Positions 3,841 through 50,800 of a stretch of 64,000 bases of DNA are shown piece by piece. The notes beneath the pieces were generated by a model. It was not told the DNA's origin, ran no database searches, and worked only from the letters and a program-made list of their open reading frames with translations. This DNA comes from Mytilus californianus. Taxonomy: Eukaryota. How positions within the stretch are numbered: the stretch's first letter is position 1; the number at the start of each line of letters is the position of its first letter. The stretch spans positions 6,076,001 through 6,140,000 of the forward strand of contig NW_026262668.1 of NCBI RefSeq assembly GCF_021869535.1, written 5' to 3'. The translations under genes and the position numbers were made by a program.

Positions 3841-4028
3841 CAGTGGCGGATTCAAGGGGATCGGGGGTGCGTATAGTGCGCACACCCCTCCTTGATTGGA
3901 AAATATATGATTTTTACCATAAAATCTTCCCAAAATTTTTCGCATCGCTACGCTAGACAATTTTCAGGGTTTTTTTTCAGTTTGTTTTAGGAATTACGCC
4001 CCTTTCAACAATACCTGATCCGACTCTG
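3841..4028. mobile_element. Degenerate hAT-like MITE
   Basis: Starts CAGTGGCGGATTC and ends with a decayed inverse, CTGATCCGACTCTG. No TSD visible. Confidence 0.45.
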
Positions 4029-4893
4029 CTAACAACAACAACAACAACACTACTTTATTTTAAGAGTGTAACACATATAGCCATATAACTAATCTTCCCT
4101 GAGGCCCTCATCATAGAAAATAATAAACAAAAATGTAAACTTATATATAGCATACCTAAGTATAAAAGTCAAATATTATGATAATGTACAACACAACTGC
4201 ATAAAATGTTATAAAAAATAAACATGATGAAATAATTGATATTCAATACTTTTCAATTGGTTGATTTCAATAAATGATCTGTCTTTTTGAATTTGAAAGA
4301 AGTGACATTTGCAATATCTCGTAACGATAAAGACAAATTGTTTCACAAGGATGGTCTAGAATACATAAAAGATTTCTTGAACATTTCGATTTTTTTTATC
4401 TTGAACAGCATTTCTCAAGAGTATAGGCTTTCCGTCTGAAACATAATGAAACTTGTTAGTAAGATAAGATGGAGCATCATTTTTGATCCTCAAAGCTCAT
4501 AGTTTACTCCTACAGTGAATTTGATAGAAATAGAAAATTCTATTTTACACCGTTGTTAGTTATTGAGAAACAATTATATGTTTTCGGGTAAAATTTTTAA
4601 TAAGTCATATTAATTTTCAGTACTCAGGGGCGTTGAAAAAATCGACAAGAATATTTCCACGCCCCTGCATCGTAAATTGGTTATAAATTCTAAATAGTAC
4701 TGTAAATGTTTTGTGTTACATTGTATATACATATGAATTCATGAAGTGTCCCGCGGCCGTGCAAAACGTCGATCTGGTTTGTTTCTTTACCGAAAAATCT
4801 GCGCATAGCTGTAACAATTTCCAAACACGATGGACGAGACGGAAAAACTCGGAGTTTTCTGGAAATTTGAAAACAACACTTGACAAATTTCAT

Positions 4894-9879: not shown

Positions 9880-11575
9880 ACGACAGATTTGTACAGGATC
9901 ATCACTAGAAACTCTCAATAAATGTTTTTGTGGATTTATTTTTTATTGATAAGTGAATAAAGTAAATCATCAATTATATTAGTATGATCAGATGCAACTG
10001 GGTGCGAATCACAAATTCGCAATGCATTCTTCAGATGCTAGTTGTGACCTCTATTTCAGTGACTGACTTGGCTAGGGAGAATTTTTCAATGTCCTTTTTT
10101 TAATGACAAATCCCACATCAAATACATAGCTTTGGATCCATCCAATCATTTCATAATAGACAATTAATGGGGAGAATACGACATCAAAAATGTCCAACCC
10201 TTACACTTTAACGATAAAATATACATGCCCCACGTCAGGAACCGTTACATTAGTGCATTTTACACTTATTCTATGTTTTTTAGCCAACAACATAAGTTTC
10301 TATTCTACACCCCCTTTCAAAAATCCTGGATCCGCCCCTGGAATATTTTATTTTGAAAATATTTTCATTTCTTGGCAGGGCTGGTGACCGTTGTTTTTTT
10401 TTTTGCTCAAGACAGGTGTTGTAGTACTAGCTGGCTCCTTCCCATGATTTGTAAAACAAATATTTAATACAAAAACACATGGAATCATTACACAAGACAC
10501 TTTTAGAGCCATTACTATTAAGCATACGCTCGGTTGTACAAAAAATCTGGCCTTTCGAGTCAACTACAGATACAACACGTTTGACTGACTGTTGCCGATA
10601 TTGGTCATTAACATCTATTCTACTATAAGTATAAAGGGAAGAAATACTCTACGGTATCGTAAATTGGTCTGAAAAACTAAATAACACCCGCATAATATAT
10701 ATCTAAAGTACAATAGTGAATCTTGTAGTAACAATAAGCGTTAAGGACGAAACTGTCTGTAGTTTGTATAGCTGCAACCACAGGAGCTTGTTACCGAAAA
10801 AAATGATACATATTTGTTAAGTAAAGGTATAAAGGTATCAAATTATTTTTCAGTAACAAGTGCCCGTGACTGTGACCCTACCATCAAAATGAAAAAAAGT
10901 TATATTGGTGTGGGATATATGTGTGAATGAGACAACAGAACGGCAAACAACCAAAGGGTGTCATCCGGGTTTGCCCTCTTTTAATTACATGCATATATAA
11001 ACATGAGGGGAATTGTTAACAATTAAAGTCAGTTTCTTAAATTTAGGCATATTATTTTCCTGTAAAATCTTAAAAAGCATACATATTTTATGTTGAAAGT
11101 TGATTCGATATTGAGATTTAAAAAGGAAAAATATTATAACAAAAACTATAAATATAATTAAAAAAGAGATGAATGCTATAAGAACATTAATATTGAGATT
11201 TAAAAAGGACAAAATATTATAATAAAACTATAACTATAATTAAAAAAGAGATAAATGTCATAAGAATTTTAAATGAGATTATAAAATAAAAAAAAAATAT
11301 ATGTACAAACTAATAACAAACAAAAAATGTACTCATATTTCTATCTATTCATCTAAGATATTATAATTGAATTAATTTTTCAATCCAAATATTTAATAAT
11401 TATGTGAACAGTATTCCGCATCCAAGCTAGGATGTCAATGATGATGATTGGTTTTAGAGTCCTTTTTGATATTGCGGACTCATATTAGTAAGTTACAGAT
11501 TTGGACCTGCCTGTCTTTTTGCTTTCATTTTGCTCCGAATGCGATGTTGTAGCTGGTACGGAGTATTTAGCCGTT

Positions 11576-12166
11576 CTAACAGCATGACAGCTTCTCTTTG
11601 GGTTGAAGGTTCAAGGGCAACCGATGCGGTGGTGTGGTTAGAAGGTCATGGTCGTCGATGTCAAACCCTTCATCAAAGTCGATACTACTACGCTTGCCTC
11701 TTTCAGTTGTCGACGTGTAGTAAATAAGGCGATGACATGCCTTCTTGGGATTGTACGGACTGGTGACAATATCCTTGTTGATGACAGCTCTCACTGGTTG
11801 ACCTCTGTACTTAGTTGGTGTGAGTAGTTTACCAACTACTGTGTCACTAGCTTCTGTCTGACTGTTGTACATGTAGTCTACCCTGGCCTCGGTGTTTTGT
11901 TGTTGTACAGCAGCGGGAACAACTGTTGTTTTTGTGTCCATCCACAGGGCGAAACGGTTAGCGTTGCGTCTCCTGGTAGATAGTGGCTTGTTCTTCTTTT
12001 TCAGTGCCGGCTCAGGTTTCCTAGATGAGGTGTCCGGTTCCTTAGCCTTGATCCAAGTGAGTTGTACAGAGACCTGGTCAGAGCTGGCGGTGAATTTCCA
12101 TTCCAACTCTTTTCCATCCGACTTCATAGTTACAAGTAAGGCTTTCAATTCATTTGATAGTTCCAT
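11576..12166 (-). CDS. Unknown protein, unit A (196 aa from ATG 12166; original C-terminus appears frameshifted)
   Basis: ORF MELSNELKALLVTMK... is 49/72 identical to the unit B N-terminus. A downstream frame, LERLNTPYQLQHRIRSKMKAKR, is homologous to the unit B C-terminus. Confidence 0.65.
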   Translation of the reverse strand: MELSNELKALLVTMKSDGKELEWKFTASSDQVSVQLTWIKAKEPDTSSRKPEPALKKKNKPLSTRRRNANRFALWMDTKTTVVPAAVQQQNTEARVDYMYNSQTEASDTVVGKLLTPTKYRGQPVRAVINKDIVTSPYNPKKACHRLIYYTSTTERGKRSSIDFDEGFDIDDHDLLTTPPHRLPLNLQPKEKLSCC

Positions 12167-12777
12167 AATGATTGTCCACGAAGTGATCGATTCTAAGTCC
12201 AACTCACGAATAGGATGTCAACTACTCAAGTTATGCTTTTGTAGAAAGTTCTCTTAGCTTAGACAAGCTTATTATCATCTGTTTGAACACTTCTCACACT
12301 TTCGTTAGTAATATAAATAGACAGGTCGGTCAAATTCAAGCCATTCTAGCCATTCTAAACCGTCATCCTTGTGAACAATTATTATGGAAATACCGAATGA
12401 TTTGACCCGTTCCTTAGCCTTGATCCAAGTGAGTTGTACAGAGACCTGGTCAGAGCTGGCGGTGAATTTCCATTCCGACTCTTTTCCATCCGACTTCATA
12501 GTTACAAGTAAGGCTTTCAAATCATTTGATAGTTCCATAATGATTGTCCACGAAGTGATCGATTCTAAGTCCAACTCACGAATAGGATGTCAACTACTCA
12601 AGTTATGCTTTTGTAGAAAGTTCTCTTAGCTTAGCCAAGCTTATTATCATCTGTTTGAACACTTCTCACACTTTCATTAGTAATATAAATAGACAGGTCG
12701 GTCGAATTCAAGTCATTCTAGCCATTCTAAACCGTCATCCTTGTGAACAATTATTATGGAAATACCGAATGATTTGA
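12037..12777. repeat. 372-bp tandem duplication covering the shared intergenic region and both ORF starts
   Basis: 12037-12405 is repeated at 12409-12777 with about 6 substitutions. The ORF-track ends at 12202 and 12574 are offset by 372. Confidence 0.9.
12684..12718 (+). promoter_or_regulatory. Candidate TATA + Inr core promoter
   Basis: TATAAATA at 12684-12691 and TCATTC at 12713-12718, placing A+1 31 nt after the TATA T. The upstream duplicate is at 12312/12343. Confidence 0.45.
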
Positions 12778-13440
12778 AAGCGCTTTTAGCCAACATGAAG
12801 TTAGAAGGAAAAGAACATGAGTTGAAATTTACTGCCAGTTCTAACCAGGTTACAATCCAACTCACCTGGATCAATGCCAAGGACTCGGACACTACATCCA
12901 GGAACCCTAAGCCGGCCCTGCAAAGGAAACAGAAGCCTCCATCTACCCGGAGACGAAATGCCGAGCGTTTCACCCAGTAGATGGACTCTAAAAAAAGCCG
13001 TTGCTTCCGCTGCTTCCCCTGTACCTACCACCAGTACTAGCGTAGATAACATCTGTCAGACGCAAGCCAGGGATACAGTCATTGGTATACCACTAACACC
13101 AACAAAGTATTGTGGAGAACCAGAGGTAGTCAACACCAAGACGAACATTTTCACTAGTCCGTACAACTCCCACAAGGCATGCCATCGCCGTTACTTCTAC
13201 ACTCCATCCAAACCTAGAAGTAAGCGTTGCAGGATAGATTTCACAGAGGGATTTGAAAGCGATGGGCCCGACCTACTTCGCACACCATCCCGTACTTCTC
13301 CAATATCCTTGCCAGATCCAGAGGCCATTCAAACTGCCTTTACCTTACAAGAACGGCCAGACACTCCGTACCAACCTCAACCACCAGGTTGGTGCAAGAT
13401 GAAAGGGAAAAGAACAGCAGATTCAACACTGCAAGAATAG
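12756..13440 (+). pseudogene. Unknown protein, unit B (paralogue of unit A, disrupted)
   Basis: MEIPNDLKALLANMK...RFTQ* has TAG at 12978 where unit A has Trp, then a +1 shift in an A-run. The next frame shares LTPTKY, TSPYN, KACHR and IDFxEGF with unit A. Confidence 0.7.
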
Positions 13441-13522
13441 GTTATTGTAGTCCGCAATATCTATCAAGATAGCCGGACGATAAAATCCAACATCAATCAA
13501 TTCAAGCCATTCAAATAAAGTA

Positions 13523-13730
13523 CTGTGGATTCATTTATTTTCGTGGGAACCATTTTTCGTGGATTGAGGAAAACTTGCACTTTCGTGGATATTTGATTTC
13601 GTGGTTTTGCCAAAATCTGCATACATTCTTATAGAAAATTAGTAATTAGTTGTACATTGGAATTCGTGGTTCCCGGGTAACCACGAAATCAACGAAAATT
13701 GGTATCTAGCGAATAATAATGAATCCACAG
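13523..13730. mobile_element. Tc1/mariner-type MITE (TA TSD)
   Basis: TA|CTGTGGATTCATT...AATGAATCCACAG|TA. Related copies at 41089-41312 and about 48980-49180. Confidence 0.85.
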
Positions 13731-13731
13731 T

Positions 13732-14934
13732 ATGGCAAATGCACAACTTCAACCACTTCAGTATATACAGAACAGAGATAGTTTAGTATTAGGAGGTCAC
13801 CGTTATAGTTTTAAGAATAGACGCAACAATAACAGAATCGACTGGAGATGCACTGTTTCAACATGTCCAGCAACAGTCAACACACATGAGGGTCACCCGA
13901 TTAAATTCAGTCCACCACACAACCACCAAGCTAACTCAACCGAGGTATCCAAAATCCTACAAACAATGAAACAAAGAGCCAAGACAGAGGTCACACCTAT
14001 TCCAAAACTATACGAGGAGGAGCTTGTCAAACTCTGTAACCCAGATTGGACAGACGACATCAAATAGATTGTAGAACAACTACCAACATATTACTCTGTT
14101 AAGACGTCATGTACCATCAAAGATCTCTAAATATACCCGTACTACCAAAGACAACAGCAGACACCAATCTTCAAGAAAAATGGTGCCATTTCACTAAAGG
14201 AGATCAGTTTCTTCTACCCTCTGACAACATCAACCCACCAATGCTTATATTCTCAACTACAGACAACCTTAGACACGTTGCTTCTGCTGACACTATCTTC
14301 TGTGATGGAACCTTCTACACATGCCCAACTCTGTTCCACCAGCTTTACACAATCCACGCAATGGTTGATGGTGCAATGTACAACACTGGCATACAGCTTA
14401 TTACCAGGAAAAGATACTGACAACTACATAAGATTATTCAGTCATCTCCAGTATATATCTCAACAGCACCAACAACATCTTCAACCCAGTACCATATTCA
14501 TCGAATATGAAACAGCTACGAACAATGCAGCTCGTGTCGTCTTCCCTGGTGTTCAAGTCAAAGGTTGCTTTTTCCACTTTACCCAATGTATTTGGCAAAA
14601 GACTCAGAAATGTGGACTGCAGACTTACTACAAACAAAACGACGACATCACAAAGCTTGTTCGACGGGCAGCAGTCTTACTATTAGTACCCTAGGACCAA
14701 CTTGAAGATGATTTGCTCGACACGTTAGAAGAAATAGCTGAAGCAGAGAATGTTCCTGACACAACCACTTTTACAGATTACGTCACCGAATATTGGACTG
14801 AAGGACATCACTTCCTCTGGAACCACTACCTGACTGAGGGACCAAGCACTACCAACCACTTGGAAGGCTGGCACAGTAAAATCAAGAAGATTGTCCAACA
14901 AGCACACCCAAATATCTATGAGATAGAGTTTTGA
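13732..14934 (+). pseudogene. MULE (Mutator-like) transposase with N-terminal FLYWCH zinc finger, decayed
   Basis: YSFK...WRCTVSTCPA...HNH (FLYWCH), FCDGTF (first catalytic D), GCFFHFTQC (CxxH) and TTNHLEGWH (catalytic E). In-frame stop at 14065 plus frameshifts. Confidence 0.9.
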
Positions 14935-15519: not shown

Positions 15520-15735
15520 GATTGATTGACTGGTGTTTAATGCCACTTTCGGCACTATTGTGCTATTTCATAGCAGTCAGTTTTTTTTATTGGTTGAAGA
15601 AGCCGGAGTGACCCGAGAGAACCACCGACCTTCGGTAGGTAAACTGACAATTCTAGTCAATTTAGATTGGAGTCGAGCGCTCCTGCCACGCCGGGATTCG
15701 ATCTCACAACATCAGTGTTGACAGACTAGTGAGTT
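15520..15735 (-). mobile_element. tRNA-derived SINE, 5' truncated
   Basis: Minus strand has a B-box-like GATCGAATCCC, a central GGTGGTTCTCTCGGGTCACTCCGGCTTCTTC domain and a (TCAA)n tail. Confidence 0.6.
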
Positions 15736-19300: not shown

Positions 19301-20874
19301 GACAATTGAGGCAACAATATTGATTAAAGAAATCTTCAAGATTTTCAAAATATTACCGACAAAAGCCTTCAGTTGGGCAATCTTACTGTAATCTAATTAT
19401 CTCTACTGATAAATAATGCAACACTAATGACACACTTAAGTTTTGGAATAATTTTATTCACAGAGACTGTTTTTCATTGTACATTTCTTTGCTCTTGTCT
19501 TTTCGGAGTTCAAATTTGGAATTACTAATTGCTGCATGAAAGAGACTAGTTCCACTTTTCTATGCATATGATCGTCATATGTACTTGAAAATCATTCCAT
19601 AAACATCCGTTTGATATCCGTTCAATGCCAGAAGCTGTCTATTACCCAGCTGAGAGCAGTCCTCAGCTAGTGGTTTTTCTGCCACAATTACAAGGGAAAA
19701 CTGGCTACAACTTGCACTGGATCAGGCACTTGAATCTTACATCGATCTTGATGTTAAACAGTTAGTTTAAAGGCCCCTCCGGAACTGTTAGATTTTATGA
19801 CAGTCTTCCTTCCATACAGAACATCGCTGCAAAATAATTTGACCATTCAATTAGGTAATTATATTTTAATAATATTATTTGGCAATCCAAAGAGAACCTG
19901 AAAATATTAGACCAATGTTTGAACAGAGAAATGCCCCCAAAAACAGCCATTTTGCTAGACAATGAAATTTAAAAACCAGATAGATGCATGTGTCCCATAA
20001 TCTTTTGTTTCAGTTAAAAGTAAATGTAGATCAGATCATTGGCTCTAACCAAAATTTTAAACCGGTGTTTTGAATTCCAGTATTGTGATTGCCAAATTTA
20101 GCTGCCCCCTGAAAATCAAATGGTTGTTACCCCCCCCCCCCCCCCCCTAATTTGTTCAAGGTATGGTGGTTTGACCCCTTTTCGGCTTTCAGTACATCAT
20201 ATTGTATATCTTTAATGAAAATTGCATAAACTAGATGAATTTCTAGTAATTTTCTACGATATTATTTATCATTTGAAAAAATACCATGCATCTGATTTAA
20301 ATTGTTTCCTATTTGAAAAAGCGCGCCTTCTTTAACTTTAATTTACCTCCCTTTATTTCACGTAGCAACGCAAATAAAAAACTGCCATTCTTTGCTGCAT
20401 ATCAATTTTTTTCCCCGATAAAAATATATATCATGCAACATAATCAAATTTACAAATTGGGAGACAATCAAGGTGTTCCAACCGTTGGATAGTATTAAAA
20501 AAAATAATGAAAGGATGGCATGATTACAAGTTTGAACCCTGACGACACTGAAAATCGAAGATTCACGCATTTACCTATCATATGAAGATACGATGAGGTG
20601 ATAAACTTAACAATTAATAATTTACCTGATTCATTATCATATTCACAGTATGTTGACACGTCTTAGTTCGTCTGTGCTAGCTCATTTCAAACAAGCAAAA
20701 CAATTACAGCACCATCCGTTTTTCTTTACCGATCGCCTCTAGTCAGGAGAGCGCACTGTTTACAGGGGAGGTAATATTTTGTCACCAGTTCGTGCACTGA
20801 ATAAGGCTTCACATTAGTGACGTCATCTTGTTATAGAAATGAGAAAGCAGTTTGACATTAGTTAGATTGGCTAT

Positions 20875-22270
20875 AAACACAAGAATATCAGAGGATGTTT
20901 TTCATCAATTAAAATGGCTTTAGATACAAGAATATAAGAGGGTGTTTTTTATCTGTTAGAATGGCTTCATATGCAAGAGTATCAGAGGGTGTTTTTCATC
21001 AGCCAGAATGGCTTTAGATACAAGATTATCAGAAGGTGTTTTTCATCAGTAAGAATGGCTTAAGATACAAGAGTATCACCGAATGTTTTCATAAGTAAGA
21101 ATGGCTTTAGACACAAGAGTATCAGGGGATGTTTTTTATAAGTTAGATTGGCTTTAGATACAAGAGTATCAGAGGGTGTTTTTTATAAGTTAGAATGGCT
21201 TTAGATGCAATAGTATCAGAGGGTGTTTTTTCATAAATTAGAATGGCTTTAGAAACAAGAGTATCAGAGGGTATTTTTCATCACTCAGAATTGCTTTAGT
21301 TACAAGAGTATCAGAGGGTGTTTTCATAAGTTAGAATGGCTTTAGATGCAAGAGTATCAGCGGGTGTTTTTATAAGTTAGAATGATTTTAGATGAAATGT
21401 ATCATAGGATGTTTTCCATAAGTTAGTATGGCTTTAGATACAAGAGTATCAGAGGATGTTTTATAAGGTATATAGCTTTAGATGCTAGAGTATCAGTGGG
21501 TGTTTTTCATAAGTTAGAATAGCTTTAAATACAAAAGTATCAGTGGGTGTTTTTCATAAATTAGAATGGCTTTAGATACAAGAGTATCAGAGGGTGTTTT
21601 TGTTAAGTTTGAATGCCTTTAGATACAAGAGTATCAGAGGGTGTTTTTGTTAAGTTTGAATGCCTTTCGATACAAGAGTATCAAAGGGTGTTTTTCATAA
21701 GTTAGTATGGCTTTAGATACATGAGGATTAGAGGATGATTTCCTCGGTGAGAATGGCTTTAGATACAAGAGGATTAGAGGATGATTTCTTCGATGAGAAT
21801 AGCTTTAGATACAAGAGGATTAGAGGATGATTTCTTCGGTGAGAATAGCTTAAGATACAAGAGGATTAGAGGATGATTTCCTCGGTAAGAATAGCTTTAG
21901 ATACAAGAGGATTAGAGGATGATTTCCTCGGTGAGAATAGCTTTAGATACAAGAGGATTAGAGGATGATTTCCTCGGTGAGAATAGCTTTAGATACAAGA
22001 GGATTAGAGGATGATTTCCTCGGTGAGAATAGCTTTAGATACAAGAGGATTAGAGGATGATTTCCTCGGTGAGAATAGCTTTAGATACAAGAGGATTAGA
22101 GGATGATTTCCTCGGTGAGAATAGCTTTAGATACAAGAGGATTAGAGGATGATTTCCTCGGTGATAATAGCTTTAGATACAAGAGGATTAGAGGATGATT
22201 TCCTCGGTGAGAATAGCTTTAGATACAAGAGGATTAGAGGATGATTTCCTCGGTGAGAATAGCTTAAGAT
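20875..22270. repeat. 46-47-bp minisatellite, about 30 copies in two sub-arrays
   Basis: Diverged AGATACAAGAGTATCAGAGGGTGTTTTTCATAAGTTAGAATGGCTTT units run to about 21715, followed by near-identical AGATACAAGAGGATTAGAGGATGATTTCCTCGGTGAGAATAGCTTT units with period 46. Remnants at 22420-22555. Confidence 0.95.
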
Positions 22271-22704
22271 GCATGCATAACAGGAGACAGTTCATGCGAT
22301 TCCTTCAGAATCTGTTTGGTTAATTGATTTGTCTATTCCAATTCGATTTACGAGATTTGAAACAATTGTAAACTGCTGTAGCCTCAATAAGATACTAGAG
22401 GATATGAGGTTGTTATTCATTAGTTAGAATGACTTTAGATTCAAGAGTATTAGAGGATATTTTTCATCAGTGCGAATGGCTTTAGTTGCACGAGTATCAG
22501 AGCACTTTCAACAGTTACAATGGCTTCAGATACAAGAGTATCAGAGGATGTTTTATTTTTATTAATTGCGGCTTCCCAATTATGAACTTTCCATTTTCAT
22601 GTAGCAACATTAATTCCAACAGCGCCTGCATATGGATCACAGATCTTTTTGTTGATATTCAACTTTATATATTTATATATTTGGCTTTATAACTATTTTG
22701 ATCT

Positions 22705-38800: not shown

Positions 38801-41800
38801 AAAGCTTTTGCCAAATACAACTAAGACACACCATAGAAATGTGTAAAAAAAATTGAAGTTTATTGTTTGCCACACGCTAAGTAACAAAGATTACTTCATG
38901 TGGAATTTCATTATTCTAGTTAATATTTACTCAAATGAACAAACATGTTTAATGCTATGACATATTTTCCAGCCATCAATGTAAAATAATAAAACGAGTA
39001 GGAAACAGTGTTTTCAATTTTTAATGTATATCTTAATCTTATTATGCCGAATAAATAAATGTATTCGTGTTTTTTTTTTTCATGTTTATTGTGGAGTTGT
39101 AAATACATTTTATTAAATTCCGAAGAACTTTAGAACTCTGGAAGTCACGATACATACTGAAATATTGAAATTTCACCCCTTAATCATCGTAAAATGCAGG
39201 AATCCCGCGTGTATCGTTCGCTTTTAACCTATTTTCTCTCTAAAGGCAGACTTTTTCCTATTTTTTATCAACATAATTCTGATCAAATAATTTTACAACA
39301 GATTGAAAGATTTATTTTTTCATATTGTGGTACTTTGGACAACAGTATGAGCTGTTATGATTGGCTTTTTATTTTGTAGAAAAGCATGATTGTAGTTAAT
39401 AATGACAATAAACTTCCTTATATTTGTAAAAATAAATAATTATATATGGATAGAAGAGAATAAGAATTTAAAATTTTAAAATGATATTTAGATGTTCAGT
39501 AAATTTTATAACTTTACAGGAATTTCTGAGTGCATTTAAGTTTTGGATTTTCAAATATTTTGATCCATTTGTGTTACAGACACACATTTCGTTATTCTAT
39601 TAAGTTGTTTTGCGTACTGTCCTAAATTATTTTAGTTATTCGTTGTTATTCTGTGGTTAACACAATTAATGTACTATTATATTATTTATTTATGTATTTA
39701 TCTGTCTTTAGTGTTTTTGCATTTATTTGTACTCTGTTCCCGTCATGTAATGTTGTCATTTTAGCGGTATATTTAACATTGCCATAAAGCGCGGAGGTTT
39801 GGCTAGCCACAAAACCAGGTTCAACCCACCATTTTTTCTTAAAATGTCCTGTACCAAGTCAGGAATATGGCAGTTGTTATCTAAAAGTTCGTTTCTATGA
39901 ATGTTGCATTGATGTTTGTTTTTTGTTCAACTTCTGTGTTCTGTTATTTCGTTGTTTTCCTCTTATAGTTGATGTGTTTCCCTCGGTTTTAGTTTGTAAC
40001 CCGGATTTGTTTTCTCTCAATCGATTTATGACATTTTAATAGCGGTATACTACTGTTGCCTTTATTTGACACCCAGGTGAAGAAATCTTAATGGTCGTAG
40101 TGCATTCTGGTGCAATAAATTCCTTTTATATATGATGAGGGTTTTTTTTTGTGCCGTTAAATAATTTAAAGTGACATAATATGCTTGAAGTCACGCCATT
40201 AGTTAGAGGAAATAATTAAAATTAAAATTTACCAGTGTTCCACAGTAAAAAAAAAGTTGCAATTGAGAAGTGAAAAATGCACATTAGAAATAAAAGAAGA
40301 CAAGAAATTGAGCTTTATACTGAATTAAGATACAGCAAAACGATCGTTTTTATAATTACTTACCCTTTTTTCTTTCTGTTTACATAATAAAACATTTTAA
40401 AAGATTATTTGAAGTACGTCTATAATATTCCATTACAGCTTGTTCAATCAAAAGAAGGCCTTGACTACACATCTGTTGAGGAGATACGTAAAGGAACGAT
40501 GCATGAATTTAAGCAACGAGAGCAGTTAATTGACATGTTTAAGAAGCTGTTAAAATGTCTCCTTGGATTTACTTTTCTACGAGTTATTTACAGGTATCTC
40601 TTTAAATCTTTTTTACTTTTAGATCACTTTTCATCAATTATTTTCATCTAATGGCTTAAAAATGAAAACAACACGTTATAAATTTCATGCGTCTGAAGCG
40701 CGTTTCTGGATTTACCGTCGTCAGGAACGATCAATAACGAATATTTAAAAGGCTAGGATGTATAAGAATCGAAAGAGTTGAAGAGCGATATGATCAAAGT
40801 AACCTTAAAACAAAAATAAAAATCCATCTACGGTCAACTTTTCCGTAGGGAATTGAGACCTTAGTTTCATTATAATTTCAAAATTTATAAAAGGATAATT
40901 TTAGAAAGGTTTGTTATAAATCATGTCAGTACCGAAGTACCGACTACTGAGCAGATGATACCCTCGGAGACTGATACTCCACCAGCAGAGGTATCGACCC
41001 ATTGCTGTAAAAAATGAAAACAACACGTTATGAATTGCATACGTCCGAAGCTGTGTCTACCTTCATCAGGAACGCTCAAACCCAAATACTGTAGATTCTT
41101 TATTTTTCGTGGGATACCAATTTTTGTAGATTTCGTGGGTACAAGTGAACCACAAGTGAACCACGAATTTTAATGTTCATCGAAGTAAAAATTGTCTATA
41201 GGCTTGTATGCAGACTTTGCCAAATCCACGAAATCAGATACTAGTAGTCACAAAAATACAATTTTTCCTTTAACCACGAAAATGATACCAACGAAAATAA
41301 ATGAATCCACAGTATTTGAAGGCCAAAGATGTATAAGAACCGAAGTGTCAAATATCAAAATATCAAATTCACTTTGTCAATATGTGATCAAAGTTCCAGG
41401 TTCCTGATTTTCTTGTTGACATTTATCTGAGCATGATATACGTACGTAACAGAATGCGTAATCCTCGCCGTTTCGTTAGAACAAAGATTCCAGATTGAAC
41501 CAATTTGAAGGGATTGTTCTCATGCTATTCACATCATTTATTCTTTATAATGATCACAGAAATCACTTTATTCGTCTGTATGTCCAAAAGAAAGGATTTT
41601 GGATAGCAACTTGATTTTTTGAAAGGTTTCGTAACTCCTGACCAAATTTCTTACTGAGGAAGCCCCTAAAAAGGTTTTTTTTCTGTAATTTAGTGCCCTG
41701 GAAAAATATTCCTCCTTTTAATCATTTTAAACATACATGAAATTGATTTTTAAAAAAGGAAGGAGAATCCAACTATAAAACTATGTATTTATTCAGATTT

Positions 41801-47800: not shown

Positions 47801-50800
47801 AGACAATTTGTAAACGTTTTCCAATCCAACAGGGTTATCGGGGTTAAACTCTGCATTTTTAGTACTTTCCATATTTCAATAAAACCTGGCTCAATTAACG
47901 CGATTTTATTATTCGTAGATTGATGAAATATATCTTTTAAATAGAAAAATGTATATTGGAATTCGAAATCTACGCTTAGAAACCATGTAAAACATTGTGT
48001 CCAATATGTTAATTTTTCAAATTAACCTTTTAGAGCTTCATATTTTTCCTGATAGAACTCAAATTAAGTATTAAATCATTGGTTCAATACAGTCTCGCAT
48101 TACAAGATTTTTGTATTATATTGCTTGAGTGTCAAATATGATAACATTATGTATCAATTGAAAACTTGTTTAGTAACATCTTGTATACAAATTGTTGAAA
48201 AAAACTAAACATTTAAAAACAACTCATCGACTTGTGTTATCTTTCGTATCTTTAATAAATATTTTTTTTAATATAACCATTAGAGTAAAAAACAGGAATC
48301 TGATGTTCAGTAGTTGTCGTTTGTTGATGTGGTTCATAAGTGTTTCTCGTTTCTCGTTTTTTATATTTTTATATAGATTAGACCGTTGGTTTTCCCGTTT
48401 GAATGGTTTTACACTAGTAATTTTTGGGGCCTTTTATAGCTTGCTGTTCGGTGTGAGCCAAGACTCCGTGTTGAAGACCGTACTTTGACCTATAATGGTT
48501 TACTTTTATAAATTTTTACTTGGATGGAGATTTGTCTCATTGGCACTCATACCACATCTTCTTATATCTATTTATTTTAAATTTGGCATCATATTAACAT
48601 ATTCTCATCCTGATAATCATATATACCAGCAGAAATAATGTATAATCGGGAGACAATTTTGACGAAGTAGAATTCTGTCTGTAATTGAAAGGCGTACATT
48701 AATAACGTTGCAGTTTTCTTTCTGATTTGCTTCTTATACATGGAGTTCTGTGTTTAAGAACATTTTGGTTCTGAGATAATATATGAATACCTTATTTGAA
48801 AAAAATACACCTATTTCAACTCTTTACTTTGTCGATTAATAACTTCAGATGTCAAATACTTGTTTCTTCATCGAAAAAGGACAAATTTAATTAGCAAATG
48901 ATATAATAAGAAAAAGCCCAGTTAGGGCCTTCCAGAAAAGTGGAAGAAAATAAGATTTTGTCATAGAATTTCAAGCTTACTATGGATTCATTATCATTCG
49001 TGGGATACTAGTTTTCGTGGAATTCATGGGTATTCGTTAACCACGACTTTAATGTTTAACAAATTACAAATGTTCTATAGGCTTGTATAAAGACTTTGGC
49101 AAAACTATGAATTCAAATATCCACTGATTAAAAGTACTATCCACGAAAATTGGTACAGATGAAAATAAAAGAATCCACAATGTTGAATTTTAAATACTGA
49201 TGTCAACCTTATATTCAGTACATTGATATATATATATTCCTTGCTTGGTATAACAATCGCAATTTTGAAAGTATTTTTATGAATTTAAACAGGAAAAGAA
49301 AATACTAATCGTTGTGAATTTTATGCCGCGTGTCATAATAAAAGCTTTGCTTAATTTTAATTAAAGGCTTGTGTACAAAGGTCATGATATCAGCGTGATT
49401 CAATTATTAATTCATTGCAGGAAAACATCATATTGTGGTACGAGTTTTCGGCAAGGGCTTCATGTCCAATATTGTGAGGATGTTCATTAAAAGTTTTGAT
49501 GCAAAGCACGAAATTGATGAAGTCAGTACTAACTATGGTAAGTTTATCTTTAAGAATAAAACTTGAATATGTAATTTCATCCAATTGTGTCCTATAATCT
49601 GGCGTGAGATTTCTGACAGTAGGATAGGCATGGGGCATGATACATGCAAGTCAAAAGACTGTCAACTGTCGACGCATCTGACCTTTCTCCGTTTGATATC
49701 AATGCTATTCCCTCACGGTTGTTTTTCGACATTTAGAAAGAGTGTGGCTTTGCATGGTGAGAGTTGCATGTATATCAAGAGAAGCTTATCATGTTGACTG
49801 ACCTGGTCTGGCTTCTTTTGGAGTTTGATTGTTACATTGATGAGTCTCTTCTAAATTGGTTTACGAGAGTTCAACATCGGTAAACTATTGTCGTCTTAAT
49901 TTGAACATCGGTAAACTATTGTCATCTTGATTTGAACATCGGTAAACTATTGCCGTCTTAATTTGAACATCGGTAGACTATTGTCGTCTTAATTTGAACA
50001 TCGGTAAACTATTGTCGTCTTAAATTGAACATCGGTAAACTATTGTCGTCTTAATTTAAGCATCGGTAAACTATTGTCGTCTTAATTTGAACATCGGTAA
50101 ACTATTGTCGTCTTATTTTGAACATCGGTAAACTATTGTCGTCTTAATTTGAACATCGGTAAACTACTGCCAATTCTTATTTGACACTTAACGTGAACTG
50201 CTAGTCGTCCACAGTGCAACCGGAGTCTTAAGTTAGAGGCACTGAATATGTGATAGCAAAGTCTTCAATTTACAAAATTTGTTAACGATATTAGGGTTGA
50301 AGTGCATGTTAGCAAATTTTTCATCTTATAATAATCGTGTCAACATTATAAATCAGGGAAACAGGTTAAAGACCCGTTTGTTCGACAGAACAGTTAAGTA
50401 TAACAAGGTTTCTGAAATCACTCATTATCTGTATGATATTTGGTTATGTAGCTCATCTGTAAGGATCATGTGCTCTTTTCACATCTCATGGCGTCCGTCG
50501 TCGTCGTTGTCTGTCGTAGTCCGACTCAGACCGTTGAATTTTACAAAAACATTTCTCTGAAATTACTAAGCCAATTGGCAAAATTTGTTGACAATCATCC
50601 TTACCCATTGTGTAGCATCACCACCGTATATAGGTACACTCGAAGCGGTGGAAAAAAAAGTAAGGTTGAATTCTTATTTTATAAGAACTCTTAATTATAT
50701 TCTACGTATTGCTGACAAGTAAAGATTTGTGATACTGATTCCTAATACTAGTAATGTAGCTACAATTTAGGGCTAATATGATCCTTAATTGGCTTTCTCT

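Follow-up and report, generated by a model that had tools for sequence, protein, structure and literature searches.

What are the two related coding units, here called A and B, that lie beside each other in a 64,000-nucleotide stretch of the Mytilus californianus genome (contig NW_026262668.1, positions 6,076,001 to 6,140,000; hereafter the window), and why is each bracketed by a short direct repeat of its own? A first-pass annotation had set these repeats on predicted transcription starts and offered two explanations: either they are target-site duplications (TSDs) of a promoterless open reading frame (ORF) element, mobilised by a long interspersed nuclear element (LINE), that inserts at RNA polymerase II (Pol II) start sites and borrows the host promoter, or they are intrinsic, R-like terminal redundancies of a replicating cassette. 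We demonstrate that the repeat of unit A is a TSD, and we consider it very probable that the family to which both units belong is a LINE-mobilised, protein-coding, non-autonomous retroposon. We lean toward a fuller reading in which A and B are separate insertions of a ~790-bp, one-ORF element without reverse transcriptase (RT), likely carried by a Nimb-type LINE, and in which B would borrow the predicted promoter of a MULE (Mutator-like element) transposase gene.

Units A (minus strand) and B (plus strand) are each approximately 790 bp long and consist of one ORF of approximately 220 amino acids (aa) followed by a 3' hairpin and an ATC/ATCA-type tail. They share ~70% identity, yet their flanking repeats are unlike each other. 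The 11-mer that flanks A is present at 11428, 12211 and 12583, the last being the second copy in a 372-bp tandem duplication, and the 14-mer that flanks B is found without mismatch at 12333 and 13499 and with one mismatch at 12705. Every repeat string and coordinate given in the first-pass annotation was verified in the sequence, as were the tails just before the 3' repeats, and neither word was found elsewhere on either strand of the window. When pairs of 50-bp segments, 750-830 bp apart, were drawn at random, an exact shared word of at least 11 letters occurred in 27/4000 pairs and one of at least 14 letters in 13/4000; after removal of low-complexity words and of a 46-bp satellite (20856-22554, ~30 copies at 88%), these counts were 4/4000 and 0/4000. 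The direct repeats of both units are real and far above chance.

Sites that lack A establish the nature of its repeat. Contigs from three DNA runs (X1, X3 and X10), together with one RNA run, were aligned to positions 10900-12396 at 80% likeness. A joint from 11427 to 12211, which skips 783 bases and leaves 11 shared letters, is present in X1 and X10, where its shorter side is 30 and 26 letters long, respectively, and a second X10 contig joins 11430 to 12214 with 66 letters; at both joints, the aligner scored the stretch between as 'not known'. A third A-less form, joining 11438 to 12252, occurs in X1, X3 and X10, and its 16 intervening letters match 12222-12237; it is the A-less site with a 14-base deletion (12238-12251). 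Altogether, a target with a single copy of A's repeat was found in 3/3 DNA runs, at six contig joints. Since the adjoining spacer exists in many copies (each DNA run has 7-8 contigs at 12263) and the stretch between is scored 'not known', the A-less forms may be paralogous targets rather than alleles; in either case, A's repeat lies outside the unit. The 11-bp repeat, with its 3' copy at 11428-11438 and its 5' copy at 12211-12221, is a TSD. For unit B, the repeat match indicates that the 14 bp are probably also a TSD, with the 5' copy, which contains the initiator (Inr), at 12705-12718 (one mismatch; exact copy at 12333-12346) and the 3' copy, which contains the predicted +1 at 13509, at 13499-13512.

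Flanking contigs also delimit the units. Other copies depart from the window just beyond 12211 (three contigs, X3), and another B-type copy departs just before 12352 (one contig, 8 letters, X1), with the same ATTC start in a different flank; therefore, the 5' end of both unit types lies at ATTC. The leader of A (12167-12211, minus strand) begins with this ATTC, and its A at 12211 is common to the TSD. The ORF of A (11576-12166, minus strand) is 196 aa as it stands and is frameshifted near 11590, with relatives matching on to ~11496; that of B (12756-13440, plus strand) is interrupted by a stop codon (12978-12980) and by a frameshift upstream of 13003. Both ORFs are now broken. The 3' end of A (11439-11481, minus strand) comprises a hairpin (11481-11457), a TAAAA-CC linker and an (ATC)n tail, and that of B (13450-13498, plus strand) a hairpin (13450-13478), a TAAAA-TCC linker and an (ATCA)n tail. 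Leaders are 33-45 nt long, and those of A and B differ at their 5' ends; Rfam searches and folding of the unit 5' ends revealed no 5' ribozyme and no strong 5' structure. At its 5' junction, B shows a 9-base stutter with ATTC present twice (12343-12360 and 12715-12732), possibly the product of re-priming or of a start carried over from a parent site. The 111-bp spacer between the units (12222-12332) is target DNA that lies upstream of the MULE gene and is multi-copy by contig counts; it holds a TATA-like word on the minus strand (12243-12236) and a TATA box on the plus strand (12312-12319). The 372-bp tandem duplication (array 12037-12777) holds the spacer and the 5' parts of A and B twice; its junction is also found in two other DNA runs, X1 and X3, and it is thus no assembly artefact. 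Six substitutions separate the duplication copies inside the array, and the duplication postdates both insertions.

Evidence for mobilisation by a LINE comes from the 3' end. A second metagenome scan yielded four further loci (L001-L004) from 225 candidates; L002, whose contig ends, was left out of the 3' comparison, and L003, with no recognisable 5' end, was left out of the 5' count. The post-stop hairpin and a TAAA-CC linker are common to A, B, L001, L003 and L004, thus to 5/5 aligned copies, and an ATC/ATCA tail to A, B and L001. The stem is paired in 24/24 cells over the five copies, and the hairpin folds with a z of -3.3 in A and in B. Consensus ends of the short interspersed nuclear element (SINE) BivaMD-SINE1 match L001 over 14 letters and B over 10 (PMC4824008). 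BivaMD-SINE1, BivaV-SINE1 and BivaMeta have been grouped by one tail (PMC4824008), V and Meta SINEs of the same kind have been tied to Nimb LINEs, and Mcor_SINE-2_Meta of M. coruscus, which is ATC-tailed, is listed with a Nimb partner (PMC11481361). The Nimb 3' ends printed in PMC11481361 have the same layout as those of the coding units. By this likeness to SINE and Nimb ends, judged by eye, the partner LINE is likely of the Nimb type. Three observations speak against the fuller reading: the stem shows no compensatory change among the five copies, no autonomous partner was found, and no TSD was seen at the ends of 2/2 full-length relatives (L001 and L004), both of which are decayed. We also observed a SINE at ~15520-15730 (minus strand) with a 3' end that matches the BivaV-SINE1 consensus and a tail layout that is the same as that of the coding units.

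Judged by protein similarity, A and B are members of an unannotated, multi-copy Mytilus family. The protein of A matched 28/140 candidates of similar length and 7/546 longer ones; all 30 named matches are Mytilus gene models, and no RT Pfam domain was found in any of the 35 matches. A profile search returned 69 cluster representatives, including distant relatives with a best local identity to A of 29-41%. One 90% cluster contains 11 named M. edulis members on contigs of 11 different sizes, 9/11 of them 217-219 aa long, which points to a recent spread of intact ORFs. The ORF is under purifying selection, with a ratio of nonsynonymous to synonymous substitution rates (dN/dS) between A and B of 0.32 over 185 codons. 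No Pfam family at cut-off, no PDB sequence match and no Atlas match were found for the protein. The predicted model of a relative, P0079, is weak (predicted local distance difference test 64, predicted template modelling score 0.23) and suggests a small folded N-terminus with a helix, a beta hairpin and a basic helix followed by disorder; against PDB and viral libraries it matched nothing at E 0.001, and its best Z was 2.8, a blank that is not evidence for a new fold, as the query was this weak whole-chain model and the N-terminal domain was not folded alone. TQT-like and TP/SP words recur in the family proteins and may resemble dynein-light-chain and cyclin-dependent kinase motifs. Scans for related loci found nothing among viral contigs for the element (0/163 and 0/43 candidates), among metagenomes searched with the close alignment (0/597) or among prokaryote genomes (0/104). 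Literature searches returned no published description of the family; they did not cover Repbase, Dfam or the bivalve transposable element (TE) library of PMC10294476, where a prior entry is possible, and the family is apparently an undescribed coding non-autonomous retroposon.

Several further observations concern the family. Its ORF is fused into automated Mytilus models (P0028, P0031-P0037 and P0041) named RRP36, HEPH, ADCY5, NRT and ARHGEF30/OBSCN, which are probably annotation chimeras. Two members, P0024 and P0115 (CAG2212431/2), have consecutive accessions on one contig and may be an A/B-like pair or a local duplication. The contig of L002 terminates in an inverted repeat of the element's 5' junction, exact over 34 bases (3939-3972 and 4343-4376), either an artefact or a snap-back.

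The surroundings of B bear on the question of the promoter. B is followed on its right by 8 bases, a TA-flanked miniature inverted-repeat transposable element (MITE; 13521-13732) and then a broken FLYWCH/MULE transposase gene (13732-14934, plus strand; Pfam FLYWCH E 6.5e-9, MULE E 5.2e-12). The MULE protein shares 42% identity with a 468-aa scallop protein over residues 1-402, and the ATG at 13732 is in register with the start of 8/8 MULE homologues. Once B and the MITE are removed, a perfect TATA box is followed by an Inr 31 bases on, a 13-base leader and the MULE start codon. Because TATA box, Inr and leader lead to the MULE ATG, B, which is in sense, sits in what looks like the transposase core promoter. 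A lies 132 bases upstream on the opposite strand. The MITE, recognised by its inverted repeats and with related copies near 41086-41317 and 48978-49179, has landed on the start codon of the transposase, no more than 13 bases from the same transcription start predicted for B; three insertions are clustered at a single promoter. A MULE scan of viral contigs returned 0/140.

The spacings reported by the first-pass annotation hold, with a perfect TATA match at -31 for B and a match with one mismatch at -32 for A. Its placement of the repeats on transcription starts holds for B insofar as a predicted TATA/Inr pair is present there; the CTATTC of A straddles the junction between repeat and element, and no RNA start was called. 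With consensus patterns for TATA and Inr, a perfect TATA box lies at -28 to -34 of 15/1706 Inr-like sites in the window, and one with at most one mismatch at 138/1706. By the latter measure, 4/5 copies with a definable 5' end have a TATA box in range, against a background of 4-8%, as do 2/3 copies that the first-pass annotation had not picked (p approximately 0.014, by hand). In M. edulis, CAG2215507, a family element, and CAG2215508, a MULE, are consecutive accessions from contigs of equal size. Since CAG2215507 is only 61% identical to A and CAG2215508 only 45-55% identical to the window MULE, this pair represents an independent event; approximately 0.002 adjacent element-MULE pairs are expected among 18 x 4 accessions.

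Other evidence weighs against promoter targeting. L004 has no TATA box in range, and the matches of L001 and L002 are A-rich words with a +1 placed by eye. The M. edulis adjacency was spotted post hoc and reveals neither orientation nor distance; clustering of TEs would increase the frequency at which such pairs are expected. None of the four distant loci L001-L004 adjoins a MULE; set beside a benchmark of more than 20% of copies next to one flanking repeat family, the tally is two window copies and one accession adjacency, with 0/4 distant loci. No MULE left inverted repeat or left end was found. The Inr of A is chimeric: it arose with the insertion, and the empty site lacks it. Of the 8 bases in the TATA-like word of A, 6 are missing from the A-less variant present in all three DNA runs; the promoter case for A is weak. 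The RNA run contributed 15 reads, all less than 95% alike (paralogues) and with the first mate always on the plus strand, and no starts were called from them.

Some of these points, and others like them, lend themselves to a different account, which is possible but less persuasive: that the same TSD-flanked retroposon carries its own internal promoter and inserts loosely into open or TE-rich DNA, with junctions made by ATTC microhomology and the place of B coincidental. The absence of a MULE beside 4/4 distant loci and the chimeric Inr of A fit this account, as does the fact that the element supplies its own ATTC, through which microhomology can create Inr-like junctions. Conservation of the head extends to distant relatives, and the head could be such a promoter; the element is internal or C-terminal in 4/7 longer chimeric gene models, and SINEs with LINE promoters are known in molluscs (PMC4758252). 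Opposed to it are the brevity of the leaders and the disagreement of A and B at their 5' ends, the perfect TATA box at -31 of B together with a real start codon, and the occurrence of two insertions 132 bp apart along with a second element-MULE adjacency. Having weighed both sides, we regard promoter targeting and borrowing by the family as an even question, plausible but unproven. Of the first explanation offered by the first-pass annotation, the TSD of A and LINE mobilisation are supported, as is the position of B in a core promoter, whose MULE transposase gene that annotation had not identified; family-wide targeting and borrowing of start sites is only suggested.

It is also conceivable, though improbable, that the endonuclease of the partner LINE prefers sequences in the 5' region of MULEs, as Tx1-Mar does with Mariner-N4_AMi, and that the link to start sites is secondary. 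A and B occupy, in opposite directions, a single multi-copy target located upstream of a MULE, there is a precedent for two opposite-direction hot spots, and the M. edulis pair would be a second instance. Such a preference is hard to reconcile with two target sites that share little sequence, with MULE proteins merely 45-55% alike, and with the finding that 1/18 element accessions adjoins one of the 4 MULE accessions examined. Processed pseudogenes, retrocopied from an ordinary family of host genes, are a very unlikely identity for the units: an intronless ORF under purifying selection and TSDs favour this view, but a poly(A) tract is lacking, the stop is followed in 5/5 copies by a hairpin of SINE/LINE type and a microsatellite tail, and many dispersed, intact young copies fall into several subfamilies. 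The proposal that the repeats are intrinsic redundancies of a replicating cassette or circular agent, which the similar unit lengths and the pyrimidine-ATTC at both 5' junctions might have suggested, is refuted for A by A-less forms that hold one repeat copy and, given repeats that differ between paralogues, other flanks at other copies, the lack of an Rfam match and the absence from viral contigs, is scarcely credible.

Returning to the reading that we favour, separate insertions through a Nimb-type LINE, general knowledge of target-primed reverse transcription and the anatomy of the units suggest how it might operate. The LINE RT would recognise the 3' hairpin and prime on the ATC/ATCA tail, and the second strand would join at the element's own 5' ATTC (four shared letters in B, one in A). 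A copy landing on an initiator would restore pyrimidine-ATTC ~31 nt below the host TATA box, from which Pol II could then transcribe a unit-length RNA by means of the borrowed promoter. Open core promoters, those of MULE transposons in particular, would be favoured for insertion, which would sever the transposase from its promoter. The family protein would most likely be an ORF1-like RNA chaperone or a targeting adaptor. The strongest form of this proposal, that promoterless coding retroposons of molluscs home base-precisely to Pol II core promoters, especially those of MULEs, rebuild the Inr with their own ATTC, capture the promoter and silence the transposase, with the protein as adaptor, we consider unlikely. 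If core-promoter targeting is true, it would describe a LINE-mobilised element that chooses its sites by transcription machinery and not by fixed sequence, one that would naturally mark the start sites used in the germline and would parasitise DNA transposons. On a cautious reading, there is a coding retroposon with a conserved protein without a fold match, recently active in M. edulis and misannotated as, or fused into, host genes. Elsewhere in the window, the end of a very high-copy repeat lies at 10950-11017, where contig depths sum to more than 1500 in each of the three DNA runs.

The units can be compared with several known systems. BivaMD-SINE1, BivaV-SINE1 and the Meta SINEs share with A and B a 3' hairpin followed by TAAA, CC and a short tandem repeat, and TSDs of 6-18 bp are typical of Nimb-partnered bivalve SINEs (PMC4824008, PMC11481361). 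Unlike A and B, which are coding and ~790 bp long, these SINEs have tRNA heads and no ORF, at ~250-350 bp. A tRNA-derived SINE was rejected as an identity for the units because no tRNA, 5S or 7SL head was found by Rfam in the window and the 33-45 nt leader runs straight into the ORF. Mollusc LP-SINEs are likewise short and TSD-flanked, with a tandem-repeat tail, no tRNA head and possibly Pol II transcription; they differ in a Nimb-17-like 70-bp head (compared by eye), in a promoter that is thought to be carried and in that no ORF is described in the part of PMC4758252 available. They were rejected as well, as that head is, by eye, unlike the family heads. HAL1 (half-L1), a non-autonomous LINE derivative, codes for a single protein as A and B do; that protein is L1 ORF1p (PMC5753468). 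The tail of A and B is not L1-like. Pfam, PDB and fold searches detected no known ORF1 domain in the A/B ORF, and protein searches of this kind are blind to a separate downstream ORF2.

As for choice of site, P elements resemble A and B, as interpreted here, in promoter-proximal and double insertion but are DNA transposons (PMC5932611), and R2 resembles the proposal made here in flank-dependent transcription but is autonomous and targets ribosomal DNA (as cited in PMC4494074). SINEU/Tx1-Mar of crocodilians (PMC4494074) and Xenopus Tx1 in Tx1D provide a further parallel, that of a non-autonomous retroposon inside a DNA transposon. SINEU/Tx1-Mar enters its target at two opposite-direction hot spots, much as A and B entered theirs at two sites; it has no recognised promoter, and transcription from the flank has been proposed (PMC4494074). 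SINEU differs in its small nuclear RNA head, its Tx1 partner and its Mariner target, with no ORF described in the available part of that account; A and B, for their part, have one conserved ORF and a Nimb-type tail, and B is positioned at the predicted TATA/Inr of a MULE gene.

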